Sequence record: LC483177.1
Reading direction: 5' to 3' (one strand)
Length of the DNA stretch: 64,000 nt
Origin: Klebsiella phage 05F01
The translations under genes and the position numbers were made by a program. The notes beneath the pieces were generated by a model, which searched no databases, was not told the DNA's origin, and worked only from the letters and a program-made list of their open reading frames with translations. How positions within the stretch are numbered: position 1 is the first letter of the stretch; each line of letters starts with the position of its first letter. Positions 5,424-50,774 of the stretch are shown here, piece by piece.

Positions 5424-5900
5424 TTATTTTTCTTCAGTTCTTGCCATGCAACCAATGCTCACACCAAGTAATTTACCTGATTTTCTTGCTTGATATAATT
5501 CTGCATCATAAAACTGAACTTTAACTAAAGGTGTTCCTTCTACGACAAATTCTTCACCAATATAACAATCTGTTTCATTAACCCAAGCTTTCATAGGTTT
5601 GAACTTATCTGTATTTTGGAGATGACCAAGATTGCCTTTGATGTTATTTATATTGTCGTTGAAGTTGTCTACCATTTTTCTAATTTCGATTTCAGACATA
5701 CGTTCACCGTGCAAGTCATCCTTTTCTGGAGGACAATATAGCACTTCTATTACTTGCATTTTTTCTTCGTCGAATTGATTTTTCTTGACAACTTGAGGAG
5801 TTGGTGTAGGATCTTCAGAGTGGGGATCTATTTCACTTTTACCTTTGAAAGACGAGAATGTCTTAAAGAGGTCCCATAAGCTGTCCTTGTTTATTTCCAA
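5424..5900 (-). CDS. hypothetical head assembly protein (158 aa)
   Basis: track ORF between portal and scaffold. Confidence 0.4.
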   Translation of the reverse strand: MEINKDSLWDLFKTFSSFKGKSEIDPHSEDPTPTPQVVKKNQFDEEKMQVIEVLYCPPEKDDLHGERMSEIEIRKMVDNFNDNINNIKGNLGHLQNTDKFKPMKAWVNETDCYIGEEFVVEGTPLVKVQFYDAELYQARKSGKLLGVSIGCMARTEEK

Positions 5901-16161: not shown

Positions 16162-17880
16162 TTAAAGTGAAGTCAAATACTTTTTAACTTCTTTTTCAAC
16201 ATTTTCTCGAATATCTTTCAAGGAAACATCTTTAACCAATACACCATCACGGAAAATAACTTCCAGTTGGTTATCTTTTGTATTGATGTCTTTAAATGAT
16301 AAACCATCTTGTAAGAAATAGCTACCATCTTCTTCATCTTTCAATACTGCAAGGAAGCCTTTTGCAGAACGTTTCTTAGCATCTGTTTTAGGTTCTTTAC
16401 TTACCAGGATTTCTTCGCCATCAATGATAGCACCTGTAGCCTTACATGCAAATCCAAATGTATCACGAGTATTGTAGTTATAAGAGAAACTACCGACACC
16501 GTATACGACATTGTTTGATGCAAACCCTTTACGTTTAAGACGGACACTAATCTCTTTGAATCGTTCTACAGAGATTGAATCACCATAAATCAATCCAATA
16601 TGAGAGTCAAGTTCTTTGTATCCTTTACTATTAACTTTTCCACCAAAAGTCTCCCATAAGCAAGAGATTGCTCCAATAGCTTCATGACGTGGGATTTCAT
16701 AATAAGGGTTAAGGCTACCATTAATCGTCTGTTCTCCAGTAATATCATAATAGGCATCCCTATCTTCTAAATAGATTACTTCTGTTAAGACATCAACACT
16801 AGAACATTGCAAGGTTTCCCAATCCTTAAAACTTTCAACATAATATCCAGCAACCACTTTAACCGGATCGCCACTATCAGGACGAATTACAAGTTTACCA
16901 TCTCGTTCCATAATCTTATCTTTAAGATTAGGTAGGATTTTAGTAACGACTGACCAAAAATCATAGCTGTCAGCTACATATGATGAATTACCTTTAGAGT
17001 AGATCTCAGTTGAATAAGTATCAATGAAATCTGTTTCCGCTAGGAAACGTAGCTGGTCAATGTCATTTTCAAGGTGTGGGAAATGCTCTTTTAGTTTATT
17101 AACAATAACACCAATATTAGTCGTCGCTACAGAGTGTTCAGATGCAGGAATACTACCACCAACAAACTCACCTTCCATATTGTAATAATCATTAGCATAC
17201 TGAATTGCAAGAACGCTATCGGTACCCATGAAACTTGCCAGATGACCAATACCAGTGTGATAACTGTCACGAATCCCAGACAAACCACGTGCAGAAAAGT
17301 CATGACATTGCCAAGGCATATGCAAAGTGTTATCACACGTGATATTAGCATATTTTTCAGCCATCAAACGATACTGGAATGCTGTAGTGGCGTTAGTGAT
17401 TACTTTCCAAGTTTCAGCAGACAGTGCTGTTTCAAAATAGTTAGTTAGCCATGCAAAATCAGGGTGAGTGTTATGAATAGTATAACATGGAACCTGAATA
17501 GGGCAAATTGTTCCTTCTGGCAGAGCACGGATTTCAATAGGAAGGTACCCCAAGTCATGAAGCTTACCAATATGAGTAACATCCATATCAACACCTAGGT
17601 AGCCTTTTACAAAGTTCTTGTATTCATTAACTACTTCTGCACGGTCACGATCAAAGAACCCTTCATTCCAAAGATCGATAATGAAGTTTTTAACAACACC
17701 CTGGATACCAACAAACAATACACCACGTGGAGCATCATCTGCATAGTGCTTGAAAAGCTTATCTGCTCGTGGGGTGAAGTTACTGAAAATCAACTCTGTC
17801 TTAGGGTGATACTGCTGAATATGTCCAATTTTATACCCATCAGTTGCAAAAAGTGGGTTAATGTTTTTAGTCTTAGTCAT
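16162..17880 (-). CDS. nadV: nicotinamide phosphoribosyltransferase family protein (NadV/Nampt-like, 572 aa); alternatively a Namat-type nicotinamide ADP-ribose transferase
   Basis: N-terminal NPLFATDGYKIGH resembling Nampt NILLATDSYKVTH; family-typical length and class-II PRTase-like features. Confidence 0.8.
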   Translation of the reverse strand: MTKTKNINPLFATDGYKIGHIQQYHPKTELIFSNFTPRADKLFKHYADDAPRGVLFVGIQGVVKNFIIDLWNEGFFDRDRAEVVNEYKNFVKGYLGVDMDVTHIGKLHDLGYLPIEIRALPEGTICPIQVPCYTIHNTHPDFAWLTNYFETALSAETWKVITNATTAFQYRLMAEKYANITCDNTLHMPWQCHDFSARGLSGIRDSYHTGIGHLASFMGTDSVLAIQYANDYYNMEGEFVGGSIPASEHSVATTNIGVIVNKLKEHFPHLENDIDQLRFLAETDFIDTYSTEIYSKGNSSYVADSYDFWSVVTKILPNLKDKIMERDGKLVIRPDSGDPVKVVAGYYVESFKDWETLQCSSVDVLTEVIYLEDRDAYYDITGEQTINGSLNPYYEIPRHEAIGAISCLWETFGGKVNSKGYKELDSHIGLIYGDSISVERFKEISVRLKRKGFASNNVVYGVGSFSYNYNTRDTFGFACKATGAIIDGEEILVSKEPKTDAKKRSAKGFLAVLKDEEDGSYFLQDGLSFKDINTKDNQLEVIFRDGVLVKDVSLKDIRENVEKEVKKYLTSL

Positions 17881-17889
17881 GATTTCTCC

Positions 17890-18099
17890 TTAGTAGATAA
17901 CTTTAGCTTCTATTACACTTACTTCATAATCTTTACACATAGCATAACTTAGGCCAGTTCTTAATGCTATGCAGATAATGTGATTATCTTCTGGATAATC
18001 AGTTTTTATGAGTAGTTCGCCATCAAATTCAAATGTACCACCACATTGTAGGTCATTCAATGTCACACTTTTCTCATTTTTTATTACTTCCATTATCAA
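17890..18099 (-). CDS. small hypothetical protein (69 aa)
   Basis: track ORF between nadV-like and prs-like genes. Confidence 0.4.
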   Translation of the reverse strand: MIMEVIKNEKSVTLNDLQCGGTFEFDGELLIKTDYPEDNHIICIALRTGLSYAMCKDYEVSVIEAKVIY

Positions 18100-18371
18100 T
18101 CTCCATTAACTACATGGTTATGGATAACTAGTGTTACATCCAGAACTTTCCAGATATTACCTGTCTTCACTAAACTTCCTGATAGGTCACCTTGCCAAGT
18201 AGTCGAATCACTATTACTTGAAATACATACACAAGTGCCTTCCTCTGAAGTTTTCATCCATATTGGGGGATTAACTGCATCTTCTTTTGCGTAAATAAAC
18301 AATTCACCTACAGAGATATCCTCAAGAGAAACAAGAATATCATTAACATTAGGTTTAAATTCCAGTTTCAT
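18096..18371 (-). CDS. small hypothetical protein (91 aa)
   Basis: track ORF, ATGA overlap. Confidence 0.4.
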   Translation of the reverse strand: MKLEFKPNVNDILVSLEDISVGELFIYAKEDAVNPPIWMKTSEEGTCVCISSNSDSTTWQGDLSGSLVKTGNIWKVLDVTLVIHNHVVNGD

Positions 18372-18380
18372 TTTATCTCC

Positions 18381-19259
18381 TTAACATAAAATTTGTTTTT
18401 GAACTTCTTTCTGATTTTCTACCAGAACACCTGTAGTGTTGTCAACATTATTTTCCCAAACATTGAAAGAATGAATTTTATCAATGTAAGTTGAAAGAAT
18501 ATCCACTCCTTTAGAGAAGATACCATGAGTGACATACAACTCAACCTTACCAGCATTTCGTTCTTTAAGAACTTTTGCTAGTTCAATGAACGTCCTTCCT
18601 CCATCACAGATATCATCCACGATCATAAGATTCATTCCATCAAAATCCAATACAGGGATATTAGTCTTAATGATTTCACCTGTCAAGGTGTCTCTTACTT
18701 TTTCTGCACAATGAACTTCTACACCAAGACGTTTACCAAGTTTGAAGATTTTCTTAAGAGCACCACCATCAGGACTAACCAGATGGAAAAATTCTTGCTT
18801 AATCTTCCATGCCAACATATGGAATGCAACATCATCTTGTTCAATGACAGTAAGATTGTTAATCACTGCACGTGACACATCACTGTGTGGGTCAACAACA
18901 ATCACTTCATCAAATTTAAGGCTATTTAAAATGTTTGCGAAAGCTTTAACACCAAATGCCTCTCCTGGCTCACAGAATCGATCCTGGCGGGCGTAAGGGA
19001 TATACATCATCCAAAGACACACCTTTACATCTAAACCTCTTACAACCTCATCCAGAGCGTTTTTGACCATAACCAGTTCCATGAGGTCTTGGGAGTTCTT
19101 AACTTCATGATAGACAGAAACGGTTGTGCCAACTCCTACAAGCTTATCTACATCATTCATATCAAGCTTAACATGAACTTCTCCTCCAGAGAAAACAATC
19201 TTCTCACATCTAATTTCTTCTGTTAAATATGTATACTTATTAAAAACTTCAATCTTCAT
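18381..19259 (-). CDS. prs: ribose-phosphate pyrophosphokinase family protein (Prs-like, 292 aa); alternatively an ADP-ribose pyrophosphokinase (Adps-type)
   Basis: motifs SGGEVHVKL, LMELV...IPYARQDR, PRPP-binding loop VDDICDGGRT align to E. coli Prs. Confidence 0.75.
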   Translation of the reverse strand: MKIEVFNKYTYLTEEIRCEKIVFSGGEVHVKLDMNDVDKLVGVGTTVSVYHEVKNSQDLMELVMVKNALDEVVRGLDVKVCLWMMYIPYARQDRFCEPGEAFGVKAFANILNSLKFDEVIVVDPHSDVSRAVINNLTVIEQDDVAFHMLAWKIKQEFFHLVSPDGGALKKIFKLGKRLGVEVHCAEKVRDTLTGEIIKTNIPVLDFDGMNLMIVDDICDGGRTFIELAKVLKERNAGKVELYVTHGIFSKGVDILSTYIDKIHSFNVWENNVDNTTGVLVENQKEVQKQILC

Positions 19260-19449
19260 TTTTTCCTCCTGTAGCTACTGTTGTAAACTCAACACCATCA
19301 TGAATAAGATCATTCACGTAGGTGTTGTAGATTTCACCTTCAATCTCTTCAATAATCTCCCAATGACGAAGAAACTTATTCCAAGTAAGTTCATACTCTA
19401 CACCTTCTTCAAGGTATGTTCCAGCCGAATTTATGATAATAATTTTCAT
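19249..19449 (-). CDS. small hypothetical protein (66 aa)
   Basis: track ORF. Confidence 0.4.
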   Translation of the reverse strand: MKIIIINSAGTYLEEGVEYELTWNKFLRHWEIIEEIEGEIYNTYVNDLIHDGVEFTTVATGGKNED

Positions 19450-19709
19450 TAGTCTACCACCAGTTCTACGTTAATTTTAGGTTTTACTTTCAGTTTAGGT
19501 CCATACCGCTGAATGATCCCACTTTCAAGGCAAACGACAAGGATATCCTCGTTTTCATCCGCAGTTTCATCTGTTACCATAAAAACTTTATCCTTGTATG
19601 TGAATACAACACCTGCTACAAGGTTTCCTAACTCTTCACTACCAGTATCATTGTAAGTTATTTTCATTTCTTTCCTCTCATGTTGTTTGTGTTCAAACAC
19701 TCTACTCAA
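19449..19709 (-). CDS. small hypothetical protein (86 aa), first gene of minus-strand operon
   Basis: track ORF adjacent to divergent promoter region. Confidence 0.4.
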   Translation of the reverse strand: MSRVFEHKQHERKEMKITYNDTGSEELGNLVAGVVFTYKDKVFMVTDETADENEDILVVCLESGIIQRYGPKLKVKPKINVELVVD

Positions 19710-20108
19710 CTTTAAAAACTAAGTCAATAAAATTTTTATAAATAAAAACATAAAATCTTAGTACCACTTAACTAATAGAACTGGTTTGTACGTACAGAGT
19801 ACTACCTAACCAAAAACCATAAAATCAAAACACTAAAAACACTAAATCTTTTATTTTTTATAAATAAAAAACAAAACATTTAGAATATACTAAACTCATA
19901 ACTCACTTCGTTCGTTATTCGTTAAGTATATTAAAAGATCTTTAAAATAACACAAAAAATTTATTTGTCAAGTCTTTTTACAAAAGTTTTTGCATAGTAT
20001 CTAAAAGCTCTTAGAAGTAAGTATAAGAGGTTTTGTTTTTAAGTGATATGATTTATTGTTTAAGTTATTAAAATTGATTGTGGTTGGTCTGGTGCAGGAT
20101 TTAGGCTA

Positions 20109-21883: not shown

Positions 21884-22098
21884 CATGTAGATTCTTTAAT
21901 GGAGCTATAATTTGTTTCAACCCATCTTATAGATTAAGAACTGGTGATGGTGGATATGTCTATATGGATTGGCATCACTATTGTGGTCCCACATTCTATA
22001 AAGATAAAAGGTTAACCAAAGAAGTTGAAGATTGGTGGGAAAATGAATACATATGCAAAGCATTAGATTGGTTTATTCACCGAGGGGAAAGGGCATGA
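21880..22098 (+). CDS. hypothetical protein
   Basis: track ORF. Confidence 0.4.
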   Translation: MTCRFFNGAIICFNPSYRLRTGDGGYVYMDWHHYCGPTFYKDKRLTKEVEDWWENEYICKALDWFIHRGERA

Positions 22099-22448
22099 AA
22101 GTTATTTGGTTGGATGACTTAAGAGATCCAAAAGATTATGGGTATCCTCATGCTATTTGGTTTAAAACTTCACAGGAAATACTTAACTCACATTATCTGA
22201 GTAGTCTGCAAAAAGGGTATCGTTTTGTTGATGAGTGGCATTTTGACAACGACTTAGGTGAAGAATCTTACCAAGATGGTTATGATGTATTCAAAGTACT
22301 TGAAGAACTTCTGGTGTTTGGTAAACCGTGCTTCGGGAATCCCAAAATCTACGTGCATACATCAAATCCTTCTGCTGCTAACAAATTTATGCTTGCAAAA
22401 GATAGCATGGAAAGGTATGGTGTAGAAATTAAGAGAGTCAACTATTAA
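22053..22448 (+). CDS. hypothetical protein (start possibly internal MKVIWLDD)
   Basis: track ORF. Confidence 0.4.
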   Translation: MQSIRLVYSPRGKGMKVIWLDDLRDPKDYGYPHAIWFKTSQEILNSHYLSSLQKGYRFVDEWHFDNDLGEESYQDGYDVFKVLEELLVFGKPCFGNPKIYVHTSNPSAANKFMLAKDSMERYGVEIKRVNY

Positions 22449-24522: not shown

Positions 24523-24774
24523 ATGGCAGGATATCATTTAGATGAAATTAAAAAACGTAGATATGGTAGTTTAGGTAAAATTCAAGAGGAAGTAGAAGAA
24601 ATCTTAGATGCACATCGTCAAGGTAGTCATGTTATGATCCTTGTTGAGCTTTCAGATTTATATGGAGCTATTGAAGGATTTCTTGAAGAAAACTACCCAT
24701 CAATGAAGATGTCTGATCTTAAGAAATTCTCAGATATCACTAAACGTGCTTTTGAAGGTGGGTATAGAAAATGA
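24523..24774 (+). CDS. small hypothetical protein
   Basis: track ORF. Confidence 0.4.
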   Translation: MAGYHLDEIKKRRYGSLGKIQEEVEEILDAHRQGSHVMILVELSDLYGAIEGFLEENYPSMKMSDLKKFSDITKRAFEGGYRK

Positions 24775-25352
24775 ACATTAATTTAGACCTTATAACTAGT
24801 GCTATCTCTTGGTGGGAGGAGATTGATTTCTCAACATGCAGTAGTGTTCCTTATCTGGTAGATCCAGATATCATGGCATTTACATGCCCACCAGGTGTGA
24901 TAGATAAGAGAATGACACATTCAAACGGTAAACAGTATGTTGCATCTGCTGAACAGTCATTCCTTCAGATGGAAAAAGATGGTAATATCCCTTATACAAA
25001 TAACAAAAAGTATATGGCACTGACACCTTGCTATCGTGATGAAGCAGTTTTAGATGAATTCCATTACAACATCTTTCTGAAACTTGAGTTATTTGTTTAT
25101 CATGTAGTTATTGAAGAAGAGGTTGACTATGGGCTTGCTTGTGAGTTACAATCTTTCTTCAACACGTACGGTATGCAAACTGAAATAGTTAGAACTGATA
25201 TTGGATGGGATGTTGAATACAAAGGACTGGAACTAGGTAGTTTTGGTTATAGAGAATCCCCTAAAGGTGTTCTTTATGTTTATGGCACAGGGCTTGCAGA
25301 GCCACGTGCATCAATCGCAATGGCAATGAATGAGGGTGTATATGGCTGCTAG
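24771..25352 (+). CDS. hypothetical protein (193 aa)
   Basis: track ORF. Confidence 0.45.
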   Translation: MNINLDLITSAISWWEEIDFSTCSSVPYLVDPDIMAFTCPPGVIDKRMTHSNGKQYVASAEQSFLQMEKDGNIPYTNNKKYMALTPCYRDEAVLDEFHYNIFLKLELFVYHVVIEEEVDYGLACELQSFFNTYGMQTEIVRTDIGWDVEYKGLELGSFGYRESPKGVLYVYGTGLAEPRASIAMAMNEGVYGC

Positions 25353-38606: not shown

Positions 38607-38830
38607 TGGAAGCAATGATAAGTAGTCAGAAAAGTATCAGGTTAGGGGGTTTAGCTTATATGCTGCTGGAAACAGCAGCTAAAGAAAAATGCCCTTTTGC
38701 ATATAAAGAGAATATTAAATCATTCGAGTCACAACCTGATTCTTTCACTTTCTGTGGTGTGATCTATGTTAAAGAGGAAGAGAAGTCTTTATTCAATTCA
38801 GTAAAAAGTATTTGGGAGAGCTATTCTTGA
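38606..38830 (+). CDS. small hypothetical protein (74 aa)
   Basis: track ORF. Confidence 0.4.
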
Positions 38831-39810
38831 GATATCTTATTACAGGAGGATTAGGTTTCATAGGAAGTGCTGTAGTTAGAAAACTACTTGAAAGTAAGGA
38901 TAATGTAGTAGGAATTATTGATTCAGAAACCTATGCGGCAGATAGCAGAAATGTTCCACTATTCTTTGTAGATTATTTTAATGTTGACTTATCTAACAAA
39001 GATGATGTAAATTCTGTTGTTAAAGAATTTAATCCAGATTATGTAATGCACCTTGCTGCGGAGAGTCATGTAGATAATTCAATAAAGTCACCTTCATTGT
39101 TTATTGAATCTAATATCATAGGTACTTTTAATCTACTAGAGGCTGTCCGTTTCTACGCACCCAATTTAATTAAATTCCATCACATTTCTACCGATGAAGT
39201 GTATGGAGACCTTAGTGACAGAGAAGAACTGAATTCACTGTTTAAGGAGACAGATGCATATGATCCTAGCAGCCCTTACTCTGCTTCGAAAGCAGCAAGT
39301 GACCATCTGGTGAGGGCATGGCACCGAACTTACGGTTTACCTACGGTAATCACCAATTGTTCAAATAACTATGGACCATATCATCACCCGGAGAAGCTGA
39401 TTCCACGTGTAATCACAAATGCTCTTTTGGGTAAGGAAATTCCTATCTATGGTGCAGGTAGTCAAATTCGTGATTGGCTCTATGTAGAAGACCATGCAAA
39501 GGCACTGATTACTGCCGTAATGAATGCTGTTCCTGGTAGCACCTATAATATAGGTGGACATAACGAAAGGTCTAACTTACGTGTAGTAGAAATAATTCTT
39601 AATCTCCTTAAAGATAAGACAGGCAAAGACTACACTCACTTAATTAAATACGTTACAGATCGTCCTGGTCATGATTTAAGGTATGCTATTGATGCCACCA
39701 AGATTGGTGATGAATTAGGTTGGCATCCAGAAGAAACTTTTGAATCTGGTATTGATAAAACAGTAACATGGTATCTTGAAAATAGAGAATGGTGGGAGGG
39801 CAAGATTTGA
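38812..39810 (+). CDS. rmlB: dTDP-glucose 4,6-dehydratase (RmlB); true start probably TTG at 38827 ([14 protein letters not shown])
   Basis: Rossmann TGGxGFIGS; SDR extended family; YxxxK catalytic motif (YSASK). Confidence 0.85.
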
Positions 39811-40673
39811 AAGGTATTATTTTAGCTGGCGGGAGTGGTACCCGCCTATACCCAATAACAAAAGGTGTAAGTAAACAGCTACTACCAATTTATGATAAGC
39901 CAATGATTTACTACCCACTATCAGTTCTTATGTTAGCTGATATTAGAGAAATTCTAATTATTACAACTAGAGAAGATCAAGATAACTTCGTATCATTGCT
40001 AGGGGATGGCAGCAGCATAGGTATTAGTCTATCTTATGCTATTCAAGACCAACCTAAAGGTTTAGCTGAAGCTTTCATTATTGGTGAGGACTTTATTGAC
40101 GGAGATGATGTTGCACTTGTATTAGGTGACAACCTCTTTTTCGGTCAAGGTTTTAGTAGCAAGCTGAATAGAGCTAAAGACTTAGTTAGTCACTCTGGAG
40201 GTGCTGTTTTATTTGGTTATGAAGTAAAAGACCCTGAAAGATTTGGTGTAGTAGAGTTTAAAGGTAATGAGGTAATTAGCATTGAGGAAAAACCTGCCAA
40301 TCCTAAGTCTAATTGTGCAGTAACAGGACTATATTTTTATGACCACACTGTAGTGGAAAAAGCAAAAAGTATTTCTCCATCCATCCGGGGTGAACTTGAG
40401 ATCACTGACATCAATAATCTATACTTAATTGATGAAAATCTCTCAGTAGAGGTATTAGGGAGAGGTTTTGCATGGTTAGACACAGGCACCCATGAGAGTA
40501 TGTTAGATGCATCACAATTTGTTAGAACAATACAAAAGCAACAAGGTATGTATGTCGCATGTTTAGAGGAGATTGCGTATAAAAAGGGCTGGATAGGTAA
40601 GAAAACTCTTTTAGAGATATCTAAATCTATGTTAAAGAATGACTATGGACAATACATTATGGAGCTAATATGA
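39789..40673 (+). CDS. rmlA: glucose-1-phosphate thymidylyltransferase (RmlA)
   Basis: [16 protein letters not shown] signature; start overlaps rmlB stop. Confidence 0.85.
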
Positions 40674-41245
40674 TGATTCAAAATGCAGGTGCAGATGGAC
40701 TATATGTCATTACACCTGATGTTTTTAAAGACTCACGAGGATATTTTCTAGAGACAAGTAATAATATCACATATAAAGATATTCTCAATGGAGAGTCTTT
40801 TGTTCAGAGTAATGCATCCCTTTCTAAGAAAGGGGTGTTACGTGGGCTACATTATCAAACTAAAAATGTTCAAGGTAAGTTGGTTTCTGTTAGCAATGGT
40901 TCTGTTATAGATGTGGTGGTAGACTTAAGAAAAGAGTCAGATACTTATCTTAAGTACTTTACTCAGTTCCTTTCATCTGATAATAACTTACAATTTTATG
41001 TCCCACCAGGTTTTGCTCATGGATTTGTATCTCTTGAAGAAAATACAAGGTTTGAATATAAATGCACAGACTACTACGCACCAAAGAGTGAAAAAACATT
41101 GTTGTGGTCTGACTCTGATATAGGTATAGATTGGGATAGTATTCTATATGAATTCAACCTTGACTATTTCATCCTCTCAGATAAAGACCAAAGAGGACTA
41201 ACTCTTAAGGAGATTTTGATTGAAAATCCTAGTATTTGGGGCTAA
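40670..41245 (+). CDS. rmlC: dTDP-4-dehydrorhamnose 3,5-epimerase (RmlC)
   Basis: cupin RmlC blocks: [17 protein letters not shown]...GFAHGF. Confidence 0.8.
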
Positions 41246-42029
41246 TGGTCAACTTGGAAGTATCTTTTGTGAAAAATACAGAGATCTGTCTGTCCCTTTA
41301 ACATCAAAAGATGTTGACATAACTAACTACAATGATGTAAGATATGCACTATTAAACATTAAGCCTGATATTGTCATTAACTGTGCTGCATACACTGATG
41401 TAGCTAAAGCAGAAGTTGATTTAGACTTGGCTTACAATGTAAATGCTACTGGTGCTTATTCTATATCATCAATCTCTAAAGAGATTTCAGCAAAAGTTAT
41501 CCACATATCTACAGATTATGTATATAATCAAGATGGCCCTATCTATGTAGGTGATAAAACAAACCCAATAAATAATTATGGTAAGACAAAGTTAGATGGG
41601 GACAAATTAGTATCCTATGCAGATAAGAATAACTTAGTGATAAGAACCGGTTCATTATTTTCTGACAGAGGTAAAAATTTCATTCTAACTTTGATAAATG
41701 CATATAAAAATGGCAAGATGGATTTTGATATTGTTGATGATATGTTATCAAGACCTACATCTGCATTTGATCTAGCTGATGTAATCTATAAAAATAGGGA
41801 TTTATCTGGGACAGTTCATTTTTCAGGGGACACATTAATATCATGGTATGACTATGCTAAATTGATATTTAAATTTGACCCATTAGTTAAGATTAATGCC
41901 GTAAAATCTGCTGAATCAAAAGTAAAAAGACCAATGGTATCTGACCTCATTTCTACACCTATCTTTGATGTATCTGATTTTAAATATAATCTAGAAAAAA
42001 CACTAACACTACTTGGAGTATCTAAATGA
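41220..42029 (+). CDS. rmlD: dTDP-4-dehydrorhamnose reductase (RmlD), TTG start overlapping rmlC
   Basis: [15 protein letters not shown]-terminus; about 270 aa. Confidence 0.8.
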   Translation: MKILVFGANGQLGSIFCEKYRDLSVPLTSKDVDITNYNDVRYALLNIKPDIVINCAAYTDVAKAEVDLDLAYNVNATGAYSISSISKEISAKVIHISTDYVYNQDGPIYVGDKTNPINNYGKTKLDGDKLVSYADKNNLVIRTGSLFSDRGKNFILTLINAYKNGKMDFDIVDDMLSRPTSAFDLADVIYKNRDLSGTVHFSGDTLISWYDYAKLIFKFDPLVKINAVKSAESKVKRPMVSDLISTPIFDVSDFKYNLEKTLTLLGVSK

Positions 42030-46444: not shown

Positions 46445-47116
46445 ATGAACAGAAATATTGCATACAAACGTGTATCAACAGACCAGCAAGATACTGAAAG
46501 ACAGTTCCACAACTCAGGTATGGTTTTTGATCTTGAATTTGAAGAGAAACTCTCTGGTAAAAATACAGACCGCCCTGAACTAAAGAAATGTCTATCAGTA
46601 CTTTGCAAAGGTGATACACTACATGTTTGGGAAGTTAGTCGTCTTTCTCGTAACCTGACTGATACTCGTGAGATTGTGTTCTCTCTCTTAGATAGAGGGG
46701 TAAGCATTAAATTTCATAAGGAGGGATTGGAGTTTGTTTCAGGTAGTGAAGATGGTATGAAGGATGCTATCAGCAAAATGATGCTTAACGTAATGGGCAG
46801 TTTTGCTGAATTTGAAAGGTCATTGATTTGTGGTAGAGTTAAAGAAGGTGTTGCAGTAGCTAAAAGTAAAGGAATATTAATGGGAGCAGCAAACCCTAAG
46901 TATAATAGAACTGATTATTCTAAAAAGAATGCAGCTAAAAAATCCTATGAATTTGCACTCACACTGAAAGAATCTTTAGTGTCTTATCGTCAAAAAGGGT
47001 TATCTTTTTTGACTATTGCTGAAAGGTTAAATGAAGCGGGAAAAACTACAAATAAAGGTAGTGAGTTTAAAGCAATGACTGTAAAAAGGTTATGTGAAAA
47101 ATTGGAGATCAAATGA
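46445..47116 (+). CDS. serine recombinase (resolvase/invertase family) with C-terminal HTH
   Basis: catalytic N-terminus IAYKRVSTDQQDTERQ; 223 aa. Confidence 0.75.
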   Translation: MNRNIAYKRVSTDQQDTERQFHNSGMVFDLEFEEKLSGKNTDRPELKKCLSVLCKGDTLHVWEVSRLSRNLTDTREIVFSLLDRGVSIKFHKEGLEFVSGSEDGMKDAISKMMLNVMGSFAEFERSLICGRVKEGVAVAKSKGILMGAANPKYNRTDYSKKNAAKKSYEFALTLKESLVSYRQKGLSFLTIAERLNEAGKTTNKGSEFKAMTVKRLCEKLEIK

Positions 47117-47316
47117 CAGAAGCTATCACAGACACTTTCCAATCGAGAGAAGAGATGATTAGGAAGTTAAATTTCCTGTTGATGACAGGTGGCACAAACG
47201 ATGCCAGAATTATTAGGGGAAATGGTATTTACCAATTAACCTTTACTAAAAATATTAATACATTTGATGGAGAATTTGATGAACTTAGTAGCTCACAAAC
47301 ACTTGAAACTACCTGA
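47113..47316 (+). CDS. small hypothetical protein
   Basis: track ORF. Confidence 0.3.
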   Translation: MTEAITDTFQSREEMIRKLNFLLMTGGTNDARIIRGNGIYQLTFTKNINTFDGEFDELSSSQTLETT

Positions 47317-48016
47317 TGACAAGCGCCTGTTCATCATCGGAGATTTACATGGTTGTTGGGACCTGTATAAAAAAGGCACTAAGGTGTTGGGTATTGATAA
47401 TGACGATATCGTAATATCTCTTGGGGATTTAGTTGATCGTGGACCTGAAGCATTTAAATGTGTATTAGAGTTCACCCGTAAAGAGAATAGATATGCTATC
47501 ATGGGTAATCATGAGCATATGTTAGTAAAAGGCATGCTTGATGGTGACCGAAGTTACTATGAATGCTGGTACCAAAATGGTGGTAATGTCCTCTGGGATC
47601 AATTTGATGAAGAAGGCGTTACATTAATAGCCAGTATGCTAGAAAACCTTCCTGTAATCCTAACAGTAGAGTATCGTGGGATGGTACTTGCTTTTTCTCA
47701 TGGAGGCTGGTGTGCTCAGTTAAGTTATTATTCTCCATATGAGTTAGGGAGTCTATTAACACAGAAAAATAACGACAATATCCTGGAAGCAATTATGTGG
47801 GACAGAGATAGCATCAGGTGTGCAATGGAAGAGTATCCTGTAGGTGATGTTAAAGATGTTGATTACATTTTTCATGGTCACTCTTATGTAAAAGAACCAA
47901 TCATTCACCATAACCGTGTTTATATGGATACTGGTAGCTGTTTTAATGGCAACCTCACATTTGCATCGTTTGATAAAAGAGATTTGTGGTTTTATTCAAC
48001 ATTAGAGGAAGATTAA
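47264..48016 (+). CDS. Ser/Thr protein phosphatase (lambda PPase-like metallophosphatase)
   Basis: GDLHG, GDLVDRG, GNHE motifs. Confidence 0.75.
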   Translation: MMENLMNLVAHKHLKLPDDKRLFIIGDLHGCWDLYKKGTKVLGIDNDDIVISLGDLVDRGPEAFKCVLEFTRKENRYAIMGNHEHMLVKGMLDGDRSYYECWYQNGGNVLWDQFDEEGVTLIASMLENLPVILTVEYRGMVLAFSHGGWCAQLSYYSPYELGSLLTQKNNDNILEAIMWDRDSIRCAMEEYPVGDVKDVDYIFHGHSYVKEPIIHHNRVYMDTGSCFNGNLTFASFDKRDLWFYSTLEED

Positions 48017-49982: not shown

Positions 49983-50774
49983 ATGCGTAGGGTTATTTTA
50001 ATTAGTGGGGCAGGATTAAGTGTAGAAAGTGGTATACGTGCATTCAGAACAGATACTGAAAGTGGCAAAGCATTGTGGGTTTCAAATGATTTTAATTCTG
50101 ATACTGGTGAAAGCAAAGAAGTTCAATATAAGGTAGAAGAGGTTTGTGATATTCATGCTTTCAGGGGTAATTTTTACCACAAAACTCACTCTTTCTATAA
50201 CAAAAGACGGGAAGAATTGTCAACAGTTCACCCTAATGCAGCACATCTACAGATTGGTGAATGGTTTAATAAATACCCAGGACAAGTAATTAATATTTCA
50301 ACTAACGTAGATGATCTTCTGGAAAGAAGCGGAATCCCACGTGATGAAGTAATTCATGTTCACGGCTTCCTGAAAGAGTTGAGGTATAAACTAAATGAAG
50401 GGGATGAGGAATCCATTGTTGATATTGGATATACACAAATTGAACCTGATGACTATCATTGGGCTAAACCTAATGTAGTATTCTTTGGTGAAGCTGCACC
50501 TTTATATGCTGATATGTATAATGTGTTTGATAGTCTAACTAGTCAAGATATGGTGATAGTTGTAGGTTGTTCTAACCAAGTGATTAATTTCAATTGGGAA
50601 CTCTTTCCTTCACTATCAAAAGGTGTAAAAATGTTAGTTGTCAATAATGGGATTAACTACCTTGAACAAGAGTTATATGAAAACAACGGAGTTCTTGTTT
50701 ATTATGCAGGTGCGGTTGAGACATTTACTAACAAAAATTTCATTAAACTGATCGAAAAACATTTGGAGGGTTAG
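49983..50774 (+). CDS. Sir2-family (sirtuin-like) NAD-binding protein lacking the zinc-ribbon cysteines
   Basis: ISGAGLSVESGIRAFR matches sirtuin GAGISxxSGIPxFR; later NxDxL and HG blocks; no CxxC pairs. Confidence 0.55.
   Translation: MRRVILISGAGLSVESGIRAFRTDTESGKALWVSNDFNSDTGESKEVQYKVEEVCDIHAFRGNFYHKTHSFYNKRREELSTVHPNAAHLQIGEWFNKYPGQVINISTNVDDLLERSGIPRDEVIHVHGFLKELRYKLNEGDEESIVDIGYTQIEPDDYHWAKPNVVFFGEAAPLYADMYNVFDSLTSQDMVIVVGCSNQVINFNWELFPSLSKGVKMLVVNNGINYLEQELYENNGVLVYYAGAVETFTNKNFIKLIEKHLEG

Follow-up and report, generated by a model that had tools for sequence, protein, structure and literature searches.

Putative NAD+ reconstitution operon with two embedded small genes in Klebsiella phage 05F01

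Klebsiella phage 05F01, listed in the NCBI taxonomy as an unclassified member of the Stephanstirmvirinae, has a genome of 147,331 bp (LC483177), of which the 64,000 nucleotides analysed here (64 of 147 kb) are referred to as the window. A leftward string of genes in this window encodes, in gene order, small proteins of 72 and 66 amino acids (aa), the product of adps, small proteins of 91 and 67 aa and the product of namat, and is followed by a tRNA array. The adps–namat pair is the subject of this study:

18381..19259, minus strand: adps (LC483177_00181), 292 aa, a Prs-like ADP-ribose pyrophosphokinase by sequence placement
16162..17880, minus strand: namat (LC483177_00178), 572 aa, a Nampt-like nicotinamide ADP-ribose transferase by sequence placement

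An earlier reading of the same DNA (the original prediction) had described a 572-aa Nampt/NadV-like gene and a 292-aa Prs-like gene 0.5 kb apart on the same strand, separated by two tiny open reading frames (ORFs) alone. Both ORFs and their family matches are present as described. The spacing is 500 bp, filled by ORFs of 91 and 69 aa (the second is 67 aa long from an alternative start; see below), so that namat is the third gene downstream of adps, on the same strand. The clamp motif of the 572-aa protein, the placement of both proteins in trees with validated enzymes, the scores of the 292-aa protein on a curated Prs model, and the linkage of adps to namat without a gene for nicotinamide mononucleotide (NMN) adenylyltransferase (NMNAT) lead us to conclude from the sequence that this pair is very probably the NAD+ reconstitution pathway 1 (NARP1) operon of 05F01. 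The NARP1-like function put forward in the original prediction was therefore sound, and it had already been published, as described below.

Both reactions that we propose, and the role against host defences, follow those of homologues from SpβL1, Bas63, FADO, ICP1 and DyoEdafos, and all of the chemistry suggested for 05F01 is by analogy with homologues that are 26–48% identical. Defence systems (such as type I Thoeris, DSR1/2, SIR2-HerA, SEFIR, Kongming and SPARSA) would cleave NAD+, releasing ADP-ribose (ADPR) together with nicotinamide. Adps would then take the beta,gamma-pyrophosphate from ATP and attach it to the terminal ribose of ADPR, forming ADPR pyrophosphate (ADPR + ATP -> ADPR-PP + AMP). 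The clamp of Namat would hold the adenine of ADPR-PP while nicotinamide replaces the pyrophosphate (ADPR-PP + nicotinamide -> NAD+ + PPi, where PPi is pyrophosphate), and NAD+ would thus be regenerated directly, without NMN and without an NMNAT.

The 572-aa protein matches NAPRTase (PF04095, 1.2e-34), PHROG 448 (4e-195) and NCBIfam PRK09198 (3e-146). When compared with all PDB sequences using phmmer, it scores 428 bits against 9W5W/9W5X, which are structures of SpβL1 Namat (PMC12774641), and about 179 bits against mammalian Nampt and 175 bits against Xanthomonas (Xcc) Nampt. Namat combines the catalytic core of Nampt with a ‘selectivity clamp’, the helix of which has the signature GS-X-Φ1-X-Φ2-X-Φ3-TRD, in which the X positions are aromatic and stack on the ADPR-PP adenine; this signature is absent from Nampt (PMC12774641). 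The features of the 05F01 protein are as follows:

16462..16494, minus strand: clamp helix GSFSYNYNTRD, aa 463–473, matching the published Namat signature
17725..17766, minus strand: clamp-loop region ADKLFKHYADDAPR, aa 39–52, with Lys41 at the position of SpβL1 Arg40
17014..17115, minus strand: insertion 1, aa 256–289 (34 aa), relative to SpβL1 Namat and Nampt
16675..16845, minus strand: insertion 2, aa 346–402 (57 aa), relative to SpβL1 Namat and Nampt

The equivalent helix reads GSFTYQYNTRD in SpβL1 Namat and GSGGALLQKLTRD in mouse Nampt. A GGGLLQ-type sequence occupies this position in six Nampt-type references (GGGLLQ..RD in NMNAT-linked enzymes and mouse Nampt), and across the alignment the aromatic motif is found in all Adps-linked proteins and GGGLLQ in all NMNAT-linked ones. 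The same clamp motif is present in essentially all of 50 Namat loci from IMG/VR, 46 of which have a same-strand Adps no more than 6 kb away. The catalytic core is complete (D14, Y16, F195, R198, D221, H249, R333 and D335; in SpβL1 Namat, D13', Y15', F189, R192, D215, the catalytic His, R306 and D308). The clamp loop of Namat is described as providing an additional adenine-stacking residue, with Arg, Lys or Tyr as the third residue (PMC12774641); in 05F01, Lys41 occupies the position aligned with SpβL1 Arg40, the stacking residue there, with Leu-Phe next in the sequence, and the loop is longer than that of SpβL1, as it is in the phages Paula (Justusliebigvirus) and KP2025.

The reference sequences for a tree were either validated or defined by their gene context. 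This neighbour-joining tree (500 bootstraps) separates, with 100% support, the Namat side (SpβL1, FADO, ICP1, Staphylococcus ESa2, Mycobacterium Kahlid, Felixounavirus EC6, Paula and KP2025) from the Nampt side, comprising the NMNAT-adjacent enzymes of Rhizobium V1VFA-S, Caulobacter CcrBL10 and Stenotrophomonas Ps15, the KVP40-like enzyme of ValKK3, that of Klebsiella Miro and mouse Nampt. The 572-aa protein falls on the Namat side. Its length, about 80 aa beyond that of a typical Nampt, had been offered as a further argument in the original prediction. The extra length is real and resides in the two insertions; however, both are common to the Namats of Paula (58% identical) and KP2025 (54%), and the additional residues are therefore a lineage trait of phi92-like Namats that is not functionally diagnostic.

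The 292-aa protein has the two-domain architecture of PRPS-like proteins, with matches to Pribosyltran_N, Pribosyltran and Pribosyl_synth (Pfam), PHROG 619 (4e-87) and TIGR01251 (1e-32). On TIGR01251 it scores 113 bits, in the range of the validated Adps proteins of ICP1 (98), SpβL1 (106) and FADO (96.5) and of the Paula protein (119), compared with 423 bits for E. coli Prs. A leave-clade-out Adps profile, built solely from Namat-linked proteins outside the clade of 05F01 itself, gives 230 bits for the 292-aa protein versus 72–103 bits for E. coli Prs and two archaeal Prs. In a bootstrap tree with an outgroup of only three Prs sequences, two of them partial, the Prs sequences split from all phage proteins at 96%, and the 292-aa protein groups with ICP1 Adps at 94%. 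These profile scores and placements, together with the Namat split at 100%, are the outcome of the phylogeny and profile comparison that the original prediction had proposed, and they agree with it.

ADPR-pyrophosphorylating activity and structures have been published for ICP1 Adps, as has the PP loop, a remodelled ATP-donor site that is conserved among Adps (PMC13586617). Two sites in the 05F01 protein can be located by alignment:

18588..18617, minus strand: PP loop DDICDGGRTF, aa 215–224, from alignment to ICP1 Adps and Prs
18690..18707, minus strand: catalytic beta-hairpin lysine K187 in AEKVRD, equivalent by alignment to ICP1 K185 and SpβL1 K162

The PP loop is DDICDGAASF in ICP1 Adps and DD[MI]I[DS]TGGT[LI] in E. 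coli and archaeal Prs. K187 fits a competent enzyme; as the lysine is also conserved in Prs, it does not discriminate between Adps and Prs. Of the ICP1 adenine contacts F18, R87 and F92, the F18 and R87 equivalents are retained and F92 is replaced by Cys. For the C-terminal regulatory helices of PRPS, which Adps is described as having lost, alignment of the C-terminal region with E. coli Prs (292 versus 315 aa) is ambiguous. In a published survey, a Namat gene was found within 10 genes for 97% of the Adps clade.

As the original prediction had stated, no NMNAT gene is detectable in the window. A Pfam scan that took in every coding-strand ORF of 110 aa or more, together with the small ORFs from about 10.5 to 28 kb, returned no match to CTP_transf_like, Nudix, NadR, PnuC, Macro or RyR domains. 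Six-frame searches of the 64 kb with three phage NadM–Nudix proteins (tblastn, phmmer and hmmsearch) gave a best E value of 0.07. NARP3 (PnuC plus NadR) is likewise unsupported in the window, with neither domain found by the scan. For NARP1-AP, a Macro domain was sought in the operon ORFs and their neighbours with no match, and 05F01 is not among the entries in the supplementary tables of the NARP1-AP study. A RyDEP-type gene was looked for in the two embedded ORFs, neither of which matches PF02026 or any other Pfam model at E <= 0.01. The Sir2-like gene that the original prediction had noted elsewhere in the window does exist, as a full-length Sir2-family ORF at 49983..50774 on the plus strand (PF02146, 64 bits; PHROG 2162, 321 bits). 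However, members of this family are found in 980 phage records (phi92 gp038/039, T5-like phages and Vequintavirinae among them), and the gene thus says little about the operon and adds little to the NAD-centred theme that it had been taken to reinforce. As a separate observation, a Sir2-type enzyme that consumes NAD+ and an operon that would rebuild NAD+ coexist in one lytic phage.

The operon is already catalogued as NARP1 in the 2024 paper that reported the discovery of the pathway (Osterman et al., bioRxiv 10.1101/2024.02.11.579819); our reading is correct in this respect and is not new. In Supplementary Table 1 of that paper, LC483177_00181 is identical to the 292-aa protein and is listed as an Adps homologue, with ‘Yes’ for a Namat within 10 genes. 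In Supplementary Table 2 (‘Namat homologs’), LC483177_00178, which matches the 572-aa protein over the approximately 400 residues displayed, is given as ‘Adps-associated’. Two observations on other Namat-like proteins arose from these comparisons. PDB entries 9KE8/9KEO, deposited as ‘nicotinamide phosphoribosyltransferase’, score 376 bits against 05F01 Namat, far above the Nampt scores, and have the clamp helix GAQTYQRNTRD, in which two of the three aromatic positions are missing. In Aeromonas phage 65 (1171–4907), five small ORFs lie between the Prs-like and Nampt-like genes, the latter annotated as two fragments; it has a divergent clamp helix (GSWGFLKNASRD) and is still ‘Adps-associated’ in Osterman et al.

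The small genes embedded in the operon are the only part of it that lies beyond the published catalogue:

18096..18371, minus strand: 91-aa gene (LC483177_00180), between adps and namat
17890..18093, minus strand: 67-aa gene (LC483177_00179); 69 aa if started at 18099 (17890..18099)

The ATG at 18093 is the start used for the 67-aa call on an independent public contig. Neither embedded ORF has a Pfam domain or a tblastn match in 50,697 phage records. Proteins related to the 91-aa product form 6 clusters among 5.8 billion proteins, and an exhaustive profile search of 1.84 billion representatives recovered its own cluster only. The 67/69-aa protein has two close clusters only and matches PHROG 6570, 7832, 16423 and 8365 (E of 3e-5 to 6e-4). 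It shares PHROG 6570, 7832 and 8365 with the first gene of the string, which makes it a distant member of a generic, multi-copy small-protein family; kinship between the 69-aa ORF and the 86-aa ORF listed for that first gene is supported by these shared matches and a pairwise z of 4.5 only, direct hhalign giving an E of 0.022. Paralogy of the 91-aa protein with other small proteins was considered and is unsupported (phmmer E > 3; z of 1.7–2.3; hhalign E of 0.26 and 0.026 at less than 3% probability). Homology between a 67-aa ORF in KP2025 and the 69-aa ORF of 05F01 is unconvincing (z = 3.4, no PHROG in common). Structure models of the two embedded proteins are unusable, with mean confidence scores (pLDDT) of 37 and 59 and disagreement among five models.

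A diverged relative on a public contig of 55.7 kb (L068) has the same six-gene layout as 05F01. Compared with this relative, the proteins of the operon and the ratios of non-synonymous to synonymous substitution rates (dN/dS) of their genes are as follows:

namat: 98% amino acid identity, dN/dS 0.046
adps: 91% amino acid identity, dN/dS 0.19
67-aa ORF: 75% amino acid identity, dN/dS 0.23
91-aa ORF: 68% amino acid identity, dN/dS 0.49

The termini of the 91-aa protein are conserved and its centre is hypervariable. The retained position, intact frames and purifying selection indicate that both embedded ORFs are real, fast-evolving genes. Intervening ORFs are common in this pathway: among 46 IMG/VR loci with both enzymes, the two genes are adjacent in 9 and separated by gaps of at least 400 bp in 29.

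Several points weigh against assigning the adps–namat pair to NARP1. The nearest validated enzymes share only 40% identity with 05F01 Adps (that of ICP1) and 48% with 05F01 Namat (those of SpβL1 and FADO); two ligand contacts of ICP1 Adps are substituted (Phe92 by Cys and Phe223 by Glu); the stacking residue of the clamp loop is not readable from the sequence alone; for the other 83 kb of the genome, the absence of an NMNAT is taken from the published whole-genome survey; and SpβL1 Namat still forms NMN from phosphoribosyl pyrophosphate (PRPP) in vitro (PMC12774641), which means that some classical activity may be retained. This last activity is also what classical salvage would use, a route in which the Prs-like protein would supply PRPP, the Nampt-like protein would form NMN, and the NadR or PncC–NadD route of the host would complete NAD+ with no need for a phage NMNAT; such a route is implied by the names of the Pfam, PHROG and NCBIfam families to which the two proteins belong. 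We regard it as highly unlikely, given that NAD+ was still rescued by the homologous Bas63 operon in a host deleted for both pncC and nadR, and that SpβL1 Adps gave no detectable product in a Prs-type assay without ADPR (both published). In 05F01 itself, the Namat clamp motif and the Adps-type PP loop, the position of the proteins outside the Nampt and Prs clades with 96–100% support, and a score for the 292-aa protein that is a quarter of that of a true Prs on the curated model all argue in the same direction. A true Nampt acting with an NMNAT encoded in the other 83 kb (NARP2-type salvage) is conceivable in so far as our scan covered 64 of 147 kb, and is more improbable still. The 572-aa protein is without the GGGLLQ of NMNAT-linked Nampts and lies on the opposite side of the 100% split, and Osterman et al., who surveyed complete genomes, including LC483177, classed it as ‘Adps-associated’ and not as ‘Nmnat-associated’ and found no phage with both NARP1 and NARP2.

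A further question within the NARP1 reading is whether the 91-aa and 67-aa genes take part in the pathway. Genes inserted in NARP1 operons can be pathway partners, the published examples being Adpp, a phosphatase of ADPR-1''-phosphate that has a Macro domain and is found in 15% of NARP1 phages, and RyDEP, a RyR-domain glycosidase of cyclic ADPR (cADPR). By analogy, the embedded genes of 05F01 could be accessory or anti-defence partners that might, to name two possibilities, supply the pathway with a non-canonical product of NAD+ breakdown or inhibit a defence protein. Besides this precedent, the suggestion draws on the position that both genes hold within the operon of the diverged relative, on their intact frames, purifying selection and Shine–Dalgarno sequences, and on the speed at which they change (68% and 75% identity, compared with 91% for adps and 98% for namat), which is often seen in arms-race proteins. 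Neither protein, however, matches a Pfam domain, Macro and RyR included; intervals of 400 bp or more are usual in the pathway (29 of the 46 loci); the generic multi-copy family of the 67-aa protein is also found upstream of adps; an unrelated small ORF occupies the same place in KP2025; and the structure models (pLDDT of 37 and 59) give no help. On balance, we consider a role of these genes in the pathway unlikely. If there were such a role, the embedded genes could widen the range of NAD+-targeting defences that the operon overcomes.

Comparison with known systems places the putative NARP1 operon of 05F01 among several of its kind. The NARP1 of Bacillus phage SPbetaL1 (SpβL1; Adps gp190, Namat gp191) has the same two-enzyme logic. 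Its Namat is 48% identical to that of 05F01, with the same catalytic residues, and its Adps is 26% identical, with the PP loop DDLSSFGGTF where 05F01 has DDICDGGRTF. The SpβL1 genes abut, whereas 05F01 has two small genes in between; 05F01 Namat differs further in its two insertions (34 and 57 aa), its longer clamp loop and the Lys in place of the stacking Arg40. The closest validated Adps is that of the Vibrio phage ICP1 (40% identity, 94% bootstrap, DDICDG in the PP loop). Equivalents of its catalytic lysine, His121, Asp212/213 and Arg87 are conserved in 05F01, the protein of which is 12 aa longer at the C terminus and has Cys and Glu for Phe92 and Phe223.

The closest sequences to 05F01 come from phages that, like it, belong to the Stephanstirmvirinae: the phi92-like phages (Justusliebigvirus: Paula, and phi92 with gp107/gp108) and Klebsiella phage KP2025. 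For Paula and KP2025, Namat is 54–58% and Adps 58–62% identical to the 05F01 proteins, and both phages share the two Namat insertions and the arrangement of adps, namat and a tRNA array. They differ in the gap between the two genes, which is 71 bp in Paula, with the genes adjacent, and holds one unrelated 67-aa ORF in KP2025 and two lineage-specific ORFs in 05F01. A search for closer relatives in IMG/VR found none above 56% identity, and a nucleotide search of the phage collection gave only a 288-nt match at 73%. In Bas63 (Escherichia phage JohannRWettstein, Felixounavirus), the same pathway has been validated by deletion; this phage belongs to a different family and its genes are adjacent. 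With EC6 as a proxy for the genus, Namat is 44% and Adps 35% identical to those of 05F01, and the clamp helix is GSYTYQYMTRD. NARP2 of the Vibrio phage KVP40 (Nampt plus Nmnat/Nudix) serves the same purpose, the restoration of NAD+ during infection. Unlike the pathway predicted for 05F01, it proceeds through PRPP and NMN and depends on an NMNAT, of which none is found in the 64 kb; the KVP40-type Nampt has the GGGLLQ helix, belongs to the other clade and is about 32% identical to 05F01 Namat (measured on the ValKK3 proxy).

The remaining features of the string and its surroundings are as follows:

19449..19667, minus strand: small gene, first of the string, 72 aa from a conserved ATG; as listed, the ORF has 86 aa and begins at 19709
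19249..19449, minus strand: 66-aa gene, overlapping the start of adps by 11 nt
19944..19971, minus strand: promoter-like site, TTGACA-16 nt-TATTTT with a TG extension, matching the consensus at 10 of 12 positions, in the divergent intergenic region

The 72-aa gene encodes a member of a widespread small phage protein family (PHROG 8365, 6570 and 7832 at E of about 1e-5) and is 93% identical to its counterpart in L068 (dN/dS 0.33), with a Shine–Dalgarno sequence upstream. The 66-aa gene is 92% identical (dN/dS 0.19) and has no match in PHROG or Pfam. Spacing within the string is tight, with 9-nt gaps between adps and the 91-aa gene and between the 69-aa ORF and namat, a 4-nt overlap between the 91-aa and 69-aa ORFs, and a Shine–Dalgarno sequence before every gene. 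Strong promoter-like sites are confined to the divergent intergenic region at about 19.95–20.1 kb; the scan for promoters and terminators as a whole showed no enrichment relative to shuffled sequences and no convincing terminator within the string. Transcription of the string probably starts in the divergent promoter region near 19.95 kb, and a plausible candidate for this start is the site at 19944..19971. The sign of the GC skew flips at about 19.9 kb and again at about 50.9 kb, matching the switches of coding strand (minus, plus, minus).

Directly after namat are 13–14 tRNA genes, the arrangement also seen in Paula and KP2025, and an Rfam scan returned tRNAs only. The fourteenth is a weak tRNA-like sequence at 13445–13518 on the minus strand, which scores 31 bits against a gathering score of 29 in Rfam and is not called by ARAGORN. 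The array also contains a P-loop ORF of 201–236 aa (13535–14245, minus strand), which has no Pfam match and is called as a 201-aa gene on an independent contig (L002); its longest reading overlaps tRNA-Gln at 14185–14260.

Elsewhere in the window, a complete dTDP-L-rhamnose pathway (RmlB-like dehydratase, RmlA nucleotidyltransferase, RmlC epimerase and RmlD reductase; Pfam E of 2.8e-82 to 1e-56) is encoded at 38812–42029 on the plus strand, directly after the ribonucleotide reductase genes of this lytic Klebsiella phage; these genes may serve DNA or surface-sugar modification. A serine recombinase (46445–47116, plus strand; Resolvase N-terminal domain, 5e-28) adjoins a NinI-like Ser/Thr phosphatase (47264–48016, plus strand; Metallophos, PHROG 246), a pair set in an otherwise virulent-looking phage genome. 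A 193-aa protein (24771–25352, plus strand) matches PHROG 4806, ‘histidyl tRNA synthetase’ (4.6e-60), with no Pfam match, and is too short for a complete synthetase. The 131-aa protein at 22053–22448 on the plus strand is a cREC_REC ‘cyclic-phosphate processing receiver’ (PF20274, 5e-13; PHROG 1479). A function for it in handling ADPR-cyclic-phosphate was considered and dropped: the L068 homologue (5505–5858) has a T4 Rnl1-type RNA ligase and an AAA_33 kinase within a few genes of it, neighbours that point to RNA repair. Neither the ligase nor the kinase has a match in the 64 kb of 05F01, and the RNA-repair module has thus apparently been gained or lost between these phages.

The operon of 05F01 should, by analogy with its homologues, restore NAD+ after cleavage of the SIR2, TIR or SEFIR type; without Adpp and RyDEP, it should not on its own handle aRES-type cleavage to ADPR-1''-phosphate or cADPR signals. 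NARP1 is found in about 4% of sequenced phages. As it undoes the NAD+ depletion caused by many unrelated defences, its presence helps to predict the host range and therapeutic use of Klebsiella phages.

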